Of a stretch of 7,496 nucleotides of DNA, positions 1 to 7,496 are shown piece by piece. This DNA is from a virus (lineage: Duplodnaviria; Heunggongvirae; Uroviricota; Caudoviricetes): the IMG/VR virus record IMGVR_UViG_2660238126_000008; one strand, given 5' to 3'. The notes under the pieces were generated by a model. That model was not told the DNA's origin and searched no databases. It saw nothing but the letters and a program-made list of their open reading frames with translations. Position 1 is the stretch's first letter; every line of letters starts with the position of its first letter. The position numbers and the translations under genes are program-made.

Positions 1-330
1 AGAGATGGCCGTCGATTTAACCCCAGTGTTTTTAAAGATACTTATCAATATGGTTATACAAGCTCAGGTCAAAATACCTGGGGTGTACAAGGCTCAGTAG
101 GTATGTCTACGGGGTGGTTAGCTAATACCAGTACAGATGGTAATCATAGCCACTCACTGTCCGGCACAGCAGCATCTGCAGGTGCACACGCGCATACTGT
201 CGGTATTGGTGCTCATACGCACTCCGTTGCGATTGGTTCACATGGACACACCATCACCGTTAACGCTGCTGGTAATGCGGAAAACACCGTCAAAAACATC
301 GCATTTAACTATATTGTGAGGCTTGCATAA
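1..330 (+). CDS. stfR: Phage side tail fiber protein, C-terminal end (5'-partial; runs off the window start)
   Basis: Frame 1 is open from base 1 to the TAA at 328-330. The translation ends ...[41 protein letters not shown]...NYIVRLA, with four HxH motifs typical of tail fiber tip domains. It is followed directly by a tail fiber assembly gene and a pin-type invertase. The symbol rests on the downstream gene order (pinR-ynaE-uspF-ompN) as in E. coli K-12 Rac, recalled from memory. Confidence 0.8.
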
Positions 331-905
331 TGGCATTCAGAATGAGTGAACAACCACGGACCATAAAAATTTATAATCTGCTGGCCGGAACTAATGAATT
401 TATTGGTGAAGGTGACGCATATATTCCGCCTCATACAGGTCTGCCAGCAAACAGTACCGATATTGCACCGCCAGATATTCCGGCAGGCTTCGTGGCTGTT
501 TTCAACAGTGATGAGGCATCGTGGCATCTCGTTGAAGATCATCGGGGAAAAACCGTCTATGACGTGGCTTCCGGCGACGCGTTATTTATTTCTGAACTCG
601 GTCCGTTACCGGAAAATGTTACCTGGTTATCGCCGGGAGGGGAATATCAGAAGTGGAACGGCACAGCCTGGGTGAAGGATACGGAAGCAGAAAAACTGTT
701 CCGGATCCGGGAGGCGGAAGAAACAAAAAACAACCTGATGCAGGTAGCCAGTGAGCATATTGCGCCGCTTCAGGATGCTGCAGATCTGGAAATTGCAACG
801 GAGGAAGAAATCTCGTTGCTGGAAGCATGGAAAAAGTATCGGGTATTGCTGAACCGTGTTGATACGTCAACTGCACAGGATATTGAATGGCCAGCACTGC
901 CGTAG
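330..905 (+). CDS. tfaR: Tail fiber assembly protein (Tfa family)
   Basis: 191-aa ORF whose ATG overlaps the upstream stop (TAATG at 328-332). The protein ends ...[17 protein letters not shown], a typical Tfa/gpG-like C-terminus, and lies immediately 3' of the tail fiber gene. Confidence 0.85.
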
Positions 906-1002
906 GGTAAAACATATAAATTCTATAATTAGATGTATCTTTCCATTTACGGCAAGGAAGGGGGCTTGGAAGACGTAAAGCATCTCACACCGAGATTATT
1001 TT

Positions 1003-1593
1003 TTATATGTCAGGTGTCTGAAGTTTTGCTTTGGCTCTTAAAATGGTTTGCCGCGAGGTTTTGAATTCCCGGGCAATGGCACTTATACTTACACCTGACT
1101 TAATTCGTTCGAATACCACCTGTTTCTGTTCTTCATTTAACACAGGTGGTCGACCAAAACGTTTCCCTGCGCCGCGGGCTCTTACTATCCCGGAATGAGT
1201 GCGTTCAAGTAAAAGGTCTCGTTCAAATTCAGCGACTGCTGAAATTACTTGCATCATCATTTTTCCTGTTGGACTGGTCAGGTCAATGCCAGCCAATGCT
1301 AAGCAATGCACTCTGATACCTGTTTCGGTCAGTTGTTCCACTGTTTTCCTGATATCCATTGCATTACAACCAAGGCGATCCAGTTTTGTCACAATCAATT
1401 GATCACCACATTTCAGGCGAGCAAGCAACCGGTTAAAACCAGGACGCTCACTGGTTGCTGCTGAGCCGCTAATGTGTTCTTCGATTATTTGCTGAGGTTT
1501 GATTTTAAAACCTGCACTTTCGATTTCCCGGCGTTGATTTTCGGTGGTCTGATCCAGCGTTGATATCCGACAGTAAGCAAAAATTCGAGACAT
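1003..1593 (-). CDS. pinR: Serine recombinase, DNA invertase family (Pin/Gin/Hin/Cin-like, 196 aa)
   Basis: N-terminal YCRISTLDQ motif with the catalytic Ser, a resolvase catalytic-domain pattern ([13 protein letters not shown]...) and a C-terminal HTH region ([20 protein letters not shown]). Convergent with tfaR, ATG at 1591-1593. Symbol from remembered K-12 PinR and gene context. Confidence 0.88.
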
Positions 1594-1909
1594 AGTGAGA
1601 CTCTATACGAAATTGGTGTTCATATCATAATGCATCTCAGAAAATAATTATGATTATTTTTGTGCATATTTGTATGTACACGTTCGAAAATAAACGAATG
1701 CGTATGCAACCCCGTAATTTTGGTGAGACCCAAAATCGATTTTGTGAAAAATGGCTTTAACTCGGTTTGTTTTTCGAGTTCCGGGCGGACTCAAGGAAGA
1801 AGAATAGTGTTGCGTGTTATTTTAACCAGATTTCAAGTTGTTTGGTCGTGGAAAAGTGGAGCAAAATGTTGTTAAAGTGGAAAAATGATAAAAAAGTAAG
1901 TTTATTATA

Positions 1910-2143
1910 TTACATTTTACCATTTAAATTTTGGTTGTCTTTAAGAACTGATATCGCTGTTTGTAATAATTCTTTGTTATCCAGCCATGATTTTTTCTTT
2001 ATGTTTCCTTCAATGTAATCAAGCAATGTTCTGGTATTGATAGGTCTTCCCTGTTTTGCTACTTCCACTACAGCATTCCCTAGGATAATTCTTACTTCAG
2101 GAAGCTGCGCAGGGAACCACTTTAGGGTGTCTTTTGATTTCAT
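1910..2143 (-). CDS. ynaE: Small Rac-prophage protein YnaE (YdfK paralogue family, 77 aa)
   Basis: The ORF-track entry 1910..2176 has an internal ATG at 2141-2143 preceded by AAGGAA about 8 nt upstream (minus strand). The product MKSKDTLKWFPAQLPEVRIILG... matches my recollection of YnaE/YdfK. The longer 88-aa start at 2176 has no RBS. Confidence 0.6.
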   Translation of the reverse strand: MKSKDTLKWFPAQLPEVRIILGNAVVEVAKQGRPINTRTLLDYIEGNIKKKSWLDNKELLQTAISVLKDNQNLNGKM

Positions 2144-2250
2144 GAAGATATTCCTTAAAATATTATTGATTTTCATTGCGATATTGTATGTCTGATTCAG
2201 GATATGTTGACTTATACATCGGTTTTGTCTGGGTTATTGGATATGCCAAT

Positions 2251-2267
2251 CCCTAATTTTATTAGGG
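2251..2267. repeat. Perfect 17-bp palindrome CCCTAAT-TTT-ATTAGGG
   Basis: Read directly from the sequence: 7-bp inverted arms around a 3-nt centre, about 110 bp upstream of the ynaE start, in an AT-rich non-coding stretch. Confidence 0.6.
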
Positions 2268-2722
2268 CATGACTAAAAATGCTGAATATGATAAGGAGAG
2301 ATGTGATTATCAGTATGCTGTTCATATAGCCTCGAATTAGTAATGTGTTATATATGATATAGTTGACAATTTTTATCTTGGGTGTTCTTAAAGTTCGTAG
2401 ATAAACATTGTCGTTTCAGGTATACAGGAATGCTAACAGGTGGCAGCAAAAATCAGGCGGTTTATGGCGCAAGCTGAAGCGGCAACTGCAAACTATCTTA
2501 TGCAGAGACTCTACACAGATTGGGTTTAAAAGTATACATAGATAACAGTTTTTATCTGAAGAAGAAAAATATCAAGGTGATATAGCCTATATGCCTATGA
2601 TGCGGAGGAATGAATGTGATGGGAGTGATGTATCTGAATAGTTGAAAAACCGCAGTCACGTCGTATGCAAGAACGTGCTGCGGTTGGTTTGACTTTGATT
2701 GAGACGTTTTGGAATTTTTTTT

Positions 2723-2775
2723 GTGGCAAAAATGGGGCAAAACGCTGCAAAAGGGGCAAAAAAGGGGCAAAAAAA
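2723..2775. repeat. Array of about five phased G-rich/A-tract units (GGGGCAAAA-like, period ~10-11 bp)
   Basis: Sequence reads gtggcaaaaa / tggggcaaaa / cgctgcaaaa / ggggcaaaaaa / ggggcaaaaaaa. A-tracts recurring at roughly one helical turn are the classic signature of intrinsically curved DNA. Confidence 0.7.
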
Positions 2776-3068
2776 GAGTGGATTATCGTAGTTTATTGTT
2801 CTCGCTGATGATGTTTAACACATTGAAAAATAAGTAAAACACTTATGAGTCAGATAGTTGTGATTTTTGCCCTTACTTGTTCAGGTTGTATTGTTCTTTC
2901 TTACTAATTTCTTGATTTTGCGACATTTAAAAGCGACTCAATTCGTTATATGGCATCAGAAGAGTATGCGTCATGCCGGAACGCCCAGCATAAGAAATCT
3001 GATATAAAAACTGTGGCGTGTATGGTACGGATTAGAGGGGAAAATGTCAGCACATTTGCGAAATGAAT

Positions 3069-3095
3069 CAAAAAGCCCGCAGCAATGTGCGGGCG
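3069..3095 (-). terminator. Rho-independent terminator downstream of uspF
   Basis: GCCCGC-(8 nt loop)-GCGGGC hairpin at 3075-3094, followed on the minus strand by a TTTTT run (plus-strand AAAAA at 3070-3074), starting 7 nt after the uspF stop. Confidence 0.6.
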
Positions 3096-3101
3096 TTAGT
3101 G

Positions 3102-3617
<516 letters not shown>

Positions 3618-3643
3618 TTAGATCAAAGGAGGAAGAATAAGCA

Positions 3644-3668
3644 GAAAAAGCCCGCCATAACAGCGGGC
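3644..3668 (-). terminator. Rho-independent terminator downstream of the ompN 3' end
   Basis: GCCCGC-(7 nt loop)-GCGGGC hairpin at 3650-3668, followed on the minus strand by TTTTT (plus AAAAA at 3645-3649), just 3' of the porin stop codon at 3677-3679. Confidence 0.65.
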
Positions 3669-3676
3669 AGGAGGAT

Positions 3677-3979
3677 TTAGAACTGATAAACCAGACCTAA
3701 AGCGACAATATCATCGGTAGAGATGCCATTGGCAGCGTAGAAACTGTCATCTTCATCCAACAGGTTGATTTTATAGTCAACATAAGTGGACATGTTTTTA
3801 TTGAAATAGTAAGTCGCGCCAACATCGGCGTATTTAACCAGATCTTTATCATCAACACCTGCCGGGTTGTCTGCACCACCGGCAGCGTGCAGGTCACGGC
3901 CTTTAGACATCAGGAAAGAGACTGCCGGACGCAGACCAAAATCAAACTGGTACTGTGCCTCATGGGGTTGGCTGAACAA
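3677..3979 (-). pseudogene. ompN: Porin (OmpC/OmpF/OmpN family) C-terminal fragment, about 95 codons; 5' three-quarters of the gene absent
   Basis: Translation ...[12 protein letters not shown]...[19 protein letters not shown]...[12 protein letters not shown]-stop, including the conserved C-terminal YQF of general porins. The minus-strand frame runs into unrelated sequence above ~3962 and hits a stop at ~4019, so no N-terminal barrel or signal peptide is present. Symbol from its position next to uspF. Confidence 0.75.
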
Positions 3980-4165
3980 TGTATCCCTGTATGGTGGTTC
4001 AGTTTTAACAAACCGTGATTATCAATCTCTGGCTGCCGGCGTTGGCTTTAACCTTAACTCATTGGGTTCATTATCTTTTGATGTCACACGATCTGATGCT
4101 CAGTTGCATAATCAGGATAAAGAAACGGGTTATAGCTACCGCGCTAACTATTCAAAACGTTTTGA
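3969..4165 (+). pseudogene. Internal fragment (~65 codons) of a fimbrial usher (chaperone-usher pathway outer-membrane protein)
   Basis: Part of ORF 3867..4211 translates ...[65 protein letters not shown], matching remembered usher motifs (NWSLYGG; xSxDxTxSxAxL; SxRxxYSKRF). The first ~33 residues of that ORF are just the antisense of the porin fragment. No start codon, signal peptide or downstream usher sequence. Confidence 0.55.
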
Positions 4166-4950
4166 ATCATATCGGCAGCCAGTTTTTCACTGTTTTCCTG
4201 CTCTTTGTTGACCAGCGGGAAATACTTGTCAGACAGCAGTTCACGACCGCAAATCACCACCAGATCGTCATCGTCCTGGTAGACCACATCGATAAGCTCA
4301 TTGACGGCATCCATCACTACGGCGTCCAGGTTGGCATATTCGCCACCTTTCCCGACTTTCACCGCGCCCGGTGTGGTTTCACCGCCCGTGGTGGTGCTGC
4401 CCATGACGTGATCCGGTGCATCCTCACGGATTTTCTGCAGCCAGCCTTTGTTCACATCCTGCAGCAGCGGGTTTTCGCTACGGTTGGAGGTTTTCGCACG
4501 CTTCACGCCGTTAAAGCCGATCATGATGCGGTCCAGTGCCTGACGTTTCACGATGGCGTTACGGATACGCACCTGGAAATCCTGAAACTTCGCCCACAGG
4601 TCCAGCTTCGCGTAGGTCAGCACCGTGTCAAAGTTGGTCTGTTCGCATTTGTATTCCACATCGACCATCAGCGTCGGATCGACAGGTTCTCGCTCTTTCG
4701 CGGTGGTATCAGTGGTTCCGGCAATGGTGCTGCCAACACCCAGCCCCAGCAACTGACCAGACTGCTCAGTCACTGGCGTGACGTTAATCAGCGTCAGGAA
4801 AGCGGCGGACTGCTGGATCTGGTCTTCCAGCGTCTGCTGCACGGACGGCTCTACGGTGAACTTGCTGGACAGTTCTTCAACTGCCACACCGTTCAGACGC
4901 GCCAGCTGCTGCAGGTAAGCGTTAAAAGCAAAGCGGGTATTCTTCTTCAT
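4144..4950 (-). pseudogene. P2-family major capsid protein (gpN-like), N-terminal ~262 residues; C-terminal third missing
   Basis: Translation MKKNTRFAFNAYL...FTVEPSV...LDLWAKFQDFQVRIRNAIVKRQALDRIMIGFNGVKRA...KVGKGGEYANLDAVVMDA...KYFPLVNKEQENSEKLAADMI closely parallels my recollection of P2 gpN. After ...AADMI it reads QNVLNS-stop, which is the antisense of the usher fragment. ATG at 4948-4950 with GGAG upstream. Confidence 0.8.
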
Positions 4951-4966
4951 CGGGTTTTGTGCTCCA

Positions 4967-5800
4967 TCAGCAATTGGTCAGAGTGTCAGCGGGGGCGTTA
5001 CCGCCTGTTGCACGCTGGCGGTAGTCCTGGCGGCTGTCTTCATGACTCAGCTTATTCACCAGTTCGTTAAAGGCGGTCTGCTGTGCCTGCAGGGCAGTCT
5101 CCAGCTCAGACAGACGTTCTTCCTGCTCAGACAGGGATTTTTCGGTGCGTGCGCTCAGGTTTTGCTGCTCAGTGGCGACCAGCTCCACGGCCTTATGCAC
5201 ATCAGAGAACCGGGCATCGTCGGACTGCTCTTTTTTGGTAAACAGCGCCGTGACACGGGCAAACAGGGACGGTTTGTCCTCCTGGATTTCTTCCAGTTCG
5301 ATCACTGTTTCCTCTGCGGCGGTAAAGAGATTGGCGGGATTCTGCTTGCGGTTTGCCAGCGGGTTATGGGCTGCACTGGCGCTGAATGTCAGCATTTCCG
5401 TACCCAAACTGGCAGGGTCATCAGTGGCAGCCAGGCCGACCAGGTAGGCTTTGCCCGTATCAGCGAACTTCGGGCTGACTTCCATAGAGGTGAATAATTT
5501 CTGGCCTTTTTTCACCAATTCCACCAGGGACTCCGTTGGCTCAACGTCGGCATACAGCGCCATCTTGCCTGCCAGCGGGCCTTCCGTGATTTCTTCAGCA
5601 AACAGCGCCGTCACCTTGCCGTAACGGTTAAAGGTGCTGTCCGGGAGATAAGACTTGATGTGCTCAAGGTTAATCAGCGCGGTATACACCGCCGGGTTGT
5701 AGCTGGCTGCCATCTGTTCCAGCCATTCACGCTGGATTTCGCGTCCGTCGGTGGTGGCACCTTCCACCCCGATGCGAAAACGCTTTGCTTTCACTGTCAT
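4967..5800 (-). CDS. P2-family capsid scaffolding protein (gpO-like), 277 aa, apparently full length
   Basis: Translation ...FRIGVEGATTDGREI...INLEH...GKAYLVGLAATDDPASLGTEMLTF...SDDARFSDVHKAV...ATGGNAPADTLTNC parallels remembered P2 gpO. ATG at 5798-5800 with GGAG about 11 nt upstream. It sits directly upstream of the capsid gene (16-bp gap), as in the P2 O-N arrangement. Confidence 0.85.
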   Translation of the reverse strand: MTVKAKRFRIGVEGATTDGREIQREWLEQMAASYNPAVYTALINLEHIKSYLPDSTFNRYGKVTALFAEEITEGPLAGKMALYADVEPTESLVELVKKGQKLFTSMEVSPKFADTGKAYLVGLAATDDPASLGTEMLTFSASAAHNPLANRKQNPANLFTAAEETVIELEEIQEDKPSLFARVTALFTKKEQSDDARFSDVHKAVELVATEQQNLSARTEKSLSEQEERLSELETALQAQQTAFNELVNKLSHEDSRQDYRQRATGGNAPADTLTNC

Positions 5801-5878
5801 GAGCCGTGCTCCGTTAGAAATAACTTACTGGAGCCTTATGGTTGCGGTGATGGGGGCAGTGAAACAATGCGCGGTATT

Positions 5879-5896
5879 TGTACCGACAACCACACA
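5879..5896. promoter_or_regulatory. TGT-N12-ACA dyad, candidate Ogr/Delta-type late-activator site in the divergent O/P intergenic region
   Basis: tgtACCGACAACCACaca read directly from the sequence, centred about 87 bp upstream of the scaffold-gene ATG. In P2-family phages late promoters carry this dyad near -55 relative to the transcription start. A possible weak -10 (CATAAG, minus strand, ~5834-5839) lies in between. The transcription start is not known. Confidence 0.4.
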
Positions 5897-5942
5897 AACC
5901 GCAGGCGGGGAAAGCCTTCATTCAAGGCTGTAGGTTTGTGCC

Positions 5943-7290
5943 ATGAACACCACACTGACACCCGCAGATCTCGATCCCCGTCGGCAGGCCATGCTGCTGT
6001 ACTTTCAGGGATACCGCGTAGCCCGCATTGCTGAAATGCTGGGCGAGAAAGTTGCAACCGTTCACAGCTGGAAGAAACGCGACAAGTGGGGTGACTATGG
6101 GCCGCTGGATCAGATGCAGCTCACCACCGCCGCACGTTACTGCCAGCTCATTATGAAGGAGCACAAAGAAGGGAAAGATTTCAAAGAAATTGACCTGCTG
6201 GCGCGCCAGTCGGAGCGCCACGCGCGGATCGGCAAGTTTAACAATGGCGGCAACGAAGCCGACTTAAACCCTAACGTCGCCAACCGCAACAAAGGCCCGC
6301 GCCGTCAGCCGGAAAAGAATGTTTTCACCGATGAACAGATAGAGAAACTGGAAGAAATCTTCCATTCCTCCATGTTCAACTACCAGCGCCACTGGTGGGA
6401 AGCCGGAAAAACCAACCGCATCCGCAACCTGCTGAAGTCACGCCAGATCGGCGCGACCTTTTACTTTGCCCGTGAAGCCCTGATTGACGCCCTGCTTACC
6501 GGACGTAACCAGATTTTCCTTTCTGCCAGTAAGGCACAGGCTCACGTCTTTAAGCAGTACATCATCGACTTCGCCAAAGAAGTCGAGGTGGAGCTGAAAG
6601 GCGATCCGATGGTGCTTCCTAACGGGGCCACGCTTTACTTCCTCGGCACCAATGCCCGCACGGCGCAGAGTTACCACGGCAACCTGTATCTGGATGAATA
6701 TTTCTGGATACCGAAATTCCAGGAGTTGCGCAAAGTGGCTTCCGGTATGGCTATTCACAAGAAATGGCGACAAACCTATTTTTCCACGCCATCCAGCCTG
6801 ACCCACAGTGCTTATCCGTTCTGGTCCGGTGCGCTGTTCAACCGTGGACGCAACAAAGCTGACAAGGTGGACATCGACCTGTCCCACAGCAATCTGGCCC
6901 CCGGCCTGCTGTGCGCAGACGGGCAATACCGCCAGATAGTCACCGTGGAAGATGCGGTGCGCGGCGGCTGTAACCTGTTCGACCTCGACCAGCTGCGCAT
7001 GGAGTACAGCCCGGACGAATACCAGAACCTGCTGATGTGCGAGTTCGTGGACGATCTCGCGTCCGTGTTCCCGCTCAGCGAACTGCAGGCGTGCATGGTG
7101 GACAGCTGGGAAGTCTGGACCGACTTTCATGCACTGGCCCTGCGCCCGTTTGGCTGGCGCGAAGTGTGGATCGGTTATGACCCGGCAAAAGGTACGCAGA
7201 ACGGCGACAGTGCCGGATGCGTGGTGGTGGCTCCGCCAGCCGTGCCGGGTGGTAAGTTCCGCATTCTTGAGCGTCACCAGTGGCGCGNGA
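5943..7290 (+). CDS. P2-family terminase large (ATPase) subunit (gpP-like), 3'-truncated at the N cluster
   Basis: About 449 codons from the ATG at 5943-5945, with a Walker-A-like SRQIGATFYF and a Walker-B-like NLYLDEYFWIP. Divergent from the scaffold gene as P is from O in P2. The reading frame stays open to the window end only because of N bases; recognisable terminase sequence stops near ...ILERHQWR (~7287). Confidence 0.82.
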
Positions 7291-7299
7291 TGNNCNNCN
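7288..7299. other. Cluster of six ambiguous bases (N at 7288, 7293, 7294, 7296, 7297, 7299) at the terminase/purL breakpoint
   Basis: Read directly from the sequence (gcgngatgnncnncnt). Two further N bases occur at 7473 and 7477. Confidence 0.95.
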
Positions 7300-7301
7300 T
7301 C

Positions 7302-7496
7302 ACGCACTTCCACGCGCCCTTCACCATGAGAGACAGCAATCGGCATTTGCGAGCCCACCATCCCCTGCAACAGCAGCGACGGGCTTTGGGTCACTTCAAC
7401 CAGGCTGAAACGCGCTTCAAAGCGATCGGAGGTATTGCGCACAAAACGTGGCCACAACTCACTACCTGGGATNATTNGAGAATCGCCGGCAGGTGA
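7302..7496 (-). CDS. purL: Internal fragment of phosphoribosylformylglycinamidine synthase (PurL), glutaminase-domain region; partial at both ends
   Basis: Minus-strand translation from the window end reads ...[57 protein letters not shown], with the amidotransferase HGEGR motif, matching my recollection of E. coli PurL near its C-terminus. The M of ORF 6438..7457 is a TTG codon inside this fragment. Below ~7300 that ORF is just the antisense of the terminase gene. Confidence 0.6.

Follow-up and report, generated by a model that had tools for sequence, protein, structure and literature searches.

Chimeric contigs of draft genomes, produced by translocation-type misjoins, are the closest described counterpart of the locus analyzed here. 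Misjoins introduced by de Bruijn assembly typically occur at shared repeats. Disruption of ompN mid-gene by insertion sequences is known in other E. coli, with IS1 annotated within the gene in strains 33-6, 58-3, Ec1120 and others. Integration of a P2-family prophage places P2-like genes next to chromosomal DNA, and a true integration junction of this family lies at the phage att site beside the integrase. Repair of double-strand breaks with a templated or captured insertion is rare in E. coli.

We analyzed a stretch of DNA of 7,496 nucleotides, hereafter called the window, in which the gene ompN switches to a fimbrial usher gene. A six-frame list of open reading frames (ORFs) showed a minus-strand ORF of 100 aa (3677 to 3979) and a plus-strand usher frame at the switch. 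The locus shares several features with draft-genome misassemblies: the flanks are collinear with different, distant loci, the join is present in one record only, one contig carries several joins, and ambiguous bases stand at joins. It differs from them in the unusual density of the joins, seven in 11 kb, and in a regular alternation of long pieces with pieces of about 200 to 500 nt. Like the IS-mediated disruptions, it has ompN cut mid-gene, but an internal piece of another gene takes the place of the IS. Like a P2-family prophage integration, it has P2-like genes adjoining chromosomal DNA, but the P2-like block starts within the capsid gene N, 274 nt from its end, and breaks off within the terminase gene P. 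We conclude with high confidence that the ompN/usher switch is an artifact of assembly or contig merging and not a biological rearrangement. That it is an artifact of one kind or another is practically certain.

The window corresponds to positions 3 to 7498 of contig CCBV01000312.1 (11,245 bp), which belongs to the draft E. coli assembly GCA_000936365.1 at NCBI. No mention of CCBV01, CCBV00000000 or GCA_000936365 was found in the literature. The contig consists of eight unrelated collinear pieces strung together by seven joins (J1 to J7) within 11.2 kb, and this mosaic structure was observed directly. Four of the seven joins, J1 to J4, fall in the window. Besides J1, the ompN/usher join, these are located at 4166-4168, 7288-7299 and 7473-7477, and all three were missed in the original prediction.

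Block A (1-3958) contains the right end of the Rac prophage (stfR', tfaR, pinR and ynaE), uspF and the 3' end of ompN. It is followed by an internal fragment of a yqiG-type fimbrial usher gene (3959-4168, plus strand) and by block C (4166-7292), a P2-like N'/O/P' prophage piece of 3127 nt. An internal piece of purL follows on the minus strand (7288-7477), about 190 nt long including two zones with N bases (7300-7472 without these zones). The next piece is a fragment of the type VI secretion system (T6SS) gene tssA on the plus strand (7473-7967, about 495 nt, or 491 nt when counted from 7474 to 7964), which runs past the end of the window at 7496. The contig continues outside the window, in window coordinates, with an rbfA'-truB-rpsO-pnp' block (7965-10854), a wcaE piece of 243 nt (10845-11087) and an eighth piece formed by the terminal 157 nt (11087-11243), which maps away from wcaE. 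Excluding the contig start and the eighth piece, the pieces are cut inside genes at both ends; the cuts lie within ompN, the usher gene, P2 genes N and P, purL, tssA, rbfA, pnp and wcaE. Long pieces of about 3 to 4 kb alternate with short ones of about 190 to 500 nt. A short piece is wedged between long ones at J1/J2 (210 nt), J3/J4 (190 nt) and J6/J7 (243 nt), and N bases are present at the latter two sites but absent at J1/J2.

Local alignment fixed the breakpoint of J1 at 3958/3959. On the left side, 2877-3958 matched the uspF-ompN locus of strain 120899 with 99.8% identity, and the match stopped exactly at 3958, which is nucleotide 282 of the 1134-nt ompN gene counted from the stop codon. 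The ompN 3' fragment (3677-3958, minus strand) thus comprises the final 282 nt of the 1134-nt gene with its stop codon and aligned with positions 255 to 337 of the 337-position Pfam profile Porin_1 (E = 1.4e-32). On the right side, 3959-4168 was 100% identical to nucleotides 1152 to 1361 of a 2505-nt yqiG-type usher gene in a ygiL-yqiH-yqiI operon (3001-3210 of the usher reference locus). Positions 189 to 256 of the 549-position Usher profile were found at 3960-4166 on the plus strand (E = 5.6e-24). The abrupt switch described from the ORFs is therefore present in the deposited sequence. The breakpoint is sharper than had been described: the porin end had been placed at about 3960 and lies exactly at 3958, and the usher start had been placed at about 3969, which was too far downstream, as the usher sequence begins at 3959. 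The usher piece, estimated at about 200 bp, measured 210 nt.

J1 is blunt. When the contig was aligned together with the two parental loci, every base could be assigned to the ompN or the usher parent, leaving a microhomology of 0 nt, an overlap of 0 nt and no N. Neither an IS end, nor a terminal inverted repeat, nor a target duplication was found at 3958/3959 or at 4166-4168. A search of 3300-4800 for repeats and att-like sequences gave only chance-sized, imperfect matches of up to 20 nt, and no tRNA gene was detected in the window. The statement that intergenic DNA, IS ends and repeats are lacking at the switch was thus borne out. Separate mapping of the two sides, as had been proposed, placed them at distant loci of strain 120899, ompN at 4.97 Mb and the usher gene at 3.04 Mb.

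From position 4166 onward, the sequence is that of the P2-family major capsid gene N (4166-4950, minus strand; Pfam Phage_cap_P2), of which the 3'-terminal 274 nt are missing. The scaffold gene O (4967-5800, minus strand) and nucleotides 1 to 1350 of the 1767-nt terminase ATPase gene P (5943-7292, plus strand; Pfam Terminase_5 and Terminase_6N) follow. Block C was 99.97 to 100% identical to P2-like prophages of complete genomes, for example that of strain A7. At J2, the trinucleotide ATC (4166-4168) is common to the usher gene and gene N, giving a perfect 3-nt overlap without N, and all the bases flanking it belong to one or the other of the two genes. A perfect 18-nt palindrome, ATTCAAAACGTTTTGAAT, lies at 4150-4167 and directly abuts J2. 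Since it also occurs at 3192-3209 of the usher reference locus L002, this sequence is native to the usher gene and was not created by the join. The palindrome may have contributed to the original end of a contig at this position.

To examine the ambiguous bases, we aligned the contig to both parental references across each join. The contig contains 17 Ns, all of which lie within J3 to J7. Sixteen of them, at J3 to J6, were testable; the remaining one lies at J7. J3 is a merged zone of 12 nt between P2 gene P and purL (7288-7299, NGATGNNCNNCN), in which the six Ns stand exactly where the two genes differ and the six called bases exactly where they agree. At J4, between purL and tssA (7473-7477), the Ns at 7473 and 7477 are both at parental mismatches. 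Over J3 to J6, parental disagreement was found at 15 of the 16 Ns and agreement at 11 of the 14 interleaved called bases (Fisher exact test, p = 8.9e-5), and the agreement of the called bases exceeded the 25% expected by chance (p = 4e-5). This link between Ns and mismatches was observed directly; as a rule it is imperfect, since three called bases in the N zones take the base of one parent, and a single N stands at an agreeing position.

In a real DNA molecule, every position is occupied by one defined base. Ambiguity exactly where two unrelated loci differ therefore indicates that two ends were overlaid by software, and that the sequence was not read from one molecule. This mark of consensus conflict was seen at J3 to J6. 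J1 and J2 are without N, which is compatible with their overlaps but is no positive sign of merging, since an overlap of 0 nt and a perfect overlap of 3 nt would leave no N under the same process.

We then evaluated whether the joins occur elsewhere. When 3400-4700 was compared with 5,426 complete E. coli genomes by megablast, none covered at least 80% of the query across J1, and all ompN matches stopped at query position 559, corresponding to 3958 of the window. The usher/P2 join was likewise absent from the 5,426 complete genomes. Junction-spanning 30- to 32-mers were absent from the GTDB representative genomes, the JGI metagenomes and IMG/VR. In a gene-position index, the 100-aa ORF spanning J1 was found on one contig only, CCBV01000312.1. 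The same was true of a 268-aa ORF in which capsid gene N is fused to antisense usher sequence, a fusion that is possible only because of J2. In a collection of 15 billion proteins, each of these two ORFs was present on one contig, given without accession or name. A 517-aa "terminase" ORF (5943-7496) and a 339-aa minus-strand ORF (6438-7457) result from reading through J3/J4 and are likewise chimeric.

These results suggest how the contig arose. A step after assembly, either contig merging or scaffolding, would have strung unrelated contigs end to end, with the contig ends overlapping by 0 to 12 nt at each join. At overlapping positions, disagreement would have been written as N and agreement kept. 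J1, having no overlap, and J2, having a perfect overlap of 3 nt, would both have remained free of N. No shared repeat is present at the joins, which suggests that the fault lies in a later merging or scaffolding step and not in the assembler graph. We infer the responsible software step from this pattern. The process that produced the N-marked joins presumably also made J1 and J2; for these two, the artifact reading is argued from their likeness to the other five joins, their uniqueness and the biological implausibility of the arrangement. A chimeric assembly or artificial join had been the first choice of the original prediction, and the distant loci, the uniqueness of the join and the six further joins on the contig, five of them marked by N, agree with it.

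Among the other explanations, a chimera made in the library is the most probable, but we consider it very unlikely; for J1 and J2 it retains a small probability. According to this explanation, ligation or amplification generated chimeric molecules that were then faithfully assembled, so that the error would be a wet-lab artifact. The blunt J1 and the 3-nt J2 fit blunt-end ligation, and the short pieces of 190 to 500 nt have the size of library fragments. However, seven successive joins would need a deeply sequenced concatemer that out-competed the true paths. The Ns also argue against it, as they stand at parental mismatches, and the consensus at J3 to J6 reflects both intact parental sequences.

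A real, complex rearrangement, in which illegitimate recombination put a 210-bp usher fragment and a partial P2 prophage inside ompN, is extremely unlikely. The sequence does stand in a public record, and loss of ompN is tolerated, the gene being naturally disrupted in other strains. However, J1 lacks an IS end, a target duplication, an att site and any useful microhomology, and both limits of the P2 block fall within genes, N and P, away from the phage attachment site. The join was found nowhere else among the genomes and collections searched. Five more joins on the same contig carry Ns, which at J3 to J6 mark a consensus conflict, and a real rearrangement would have had to gather truncated pieces of purL, pnp, rbfA and wcaE within 11 kb. 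The very unusual rearrangement that had been offered as the alternative to an artificial join is thus not supported. It is no more credible that J1 and J2 alone are real, with ompN and a P2 prophage both broken and the 210-bp usher piece captured as filler between them. If the two joins were real, they would represent the scar of a double-strand-break repair with a templated or captured insertion.

The remaining candidates were rejected. Microhomology-mediated illegitimate recombination has 0 nt to act on at J1 and 3 nt at J2; it would also have to connect loci that are megabases apart and to take up a 210-nt filler from a third locus. An event mediated by an IS or transposon was ruled out, since neither IS sequence nor target duplication nor flanking repeat is present at J1 or J2, and a P2 integration junction was ruled out by the block being bounded inside genes N and P. 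IS1 within ompN as the cause of a contig break was also rejected, as CCBV01000312.1 contains no IS sequence. The natural disruptions of ompN in other strains indicate that the gene is dispensable and are unrelated to the chimeric join. Fragments annotated as "porin, partial", 61 to 104 aa long, share a 90% cluster with the chimeric 100-aa ORF.

Under the preferred reading, an artifact of assembly or contig merging, the ompN/usher join has no biological significance, and its value lies in data hygiene. CCBV01000312.1 gives rise to spurious ORFs, namely the 100-aa "porin", the 268-aa "capsid" and the 517-aa "terminase", the last of which reads into purL antisense, and spurious ORFs of this contig have already entered large protein collections. 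Other contigs of GCA_000936365.1 are probably serial chimeras as well. Searches for unusual gene neighborhoods, gene fusions and pseudogenes should leave out this contig and probably the entire assembly. Where a reading frame breaks, Ns scattered among called bases offer a cheap and useful flag for false joins.

We also analyzed the other pieces of the contig. The purL piece was 100% identical to purL of complete genomes and matched Pfam GATase_5. The tssA piece was 99.4% identical to tssA and was matched in only 94 of the 5,426 complete genomes, 43 times on plasmids and 51 times on chromosomes. Judged from this match, the isolate probably carries a T6SS island or plasmid of this kind. The gene content of block A was taken from the annotation under the genome matches and from the Pfam families on the source contig. 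Positions 1-3958 were 100% identical to and collinear with many complete E. coli genomes, and this block is natural, contiguous E. coli DNA. In strain 120899, ttcA and not the Rac prophage adjoins uspF, and the match to the window starts only at 2877, including the first approximately 50 nt of ttcA. This start of the match suggests that the right boundary of Rac (attR or the ttcC remnant) is located near 2877. The region from 1650 to 2900 is markedly AT-rich, with a GC content of 31 to 40%. A full-length match to the Rfam family IS009 (RF02111) was detected at 673-871 on the plus strand, with 220.9 bits against a gathering score of 117, and sits within the tail-fiber-assembly gene tfaR of the Rac prophage.
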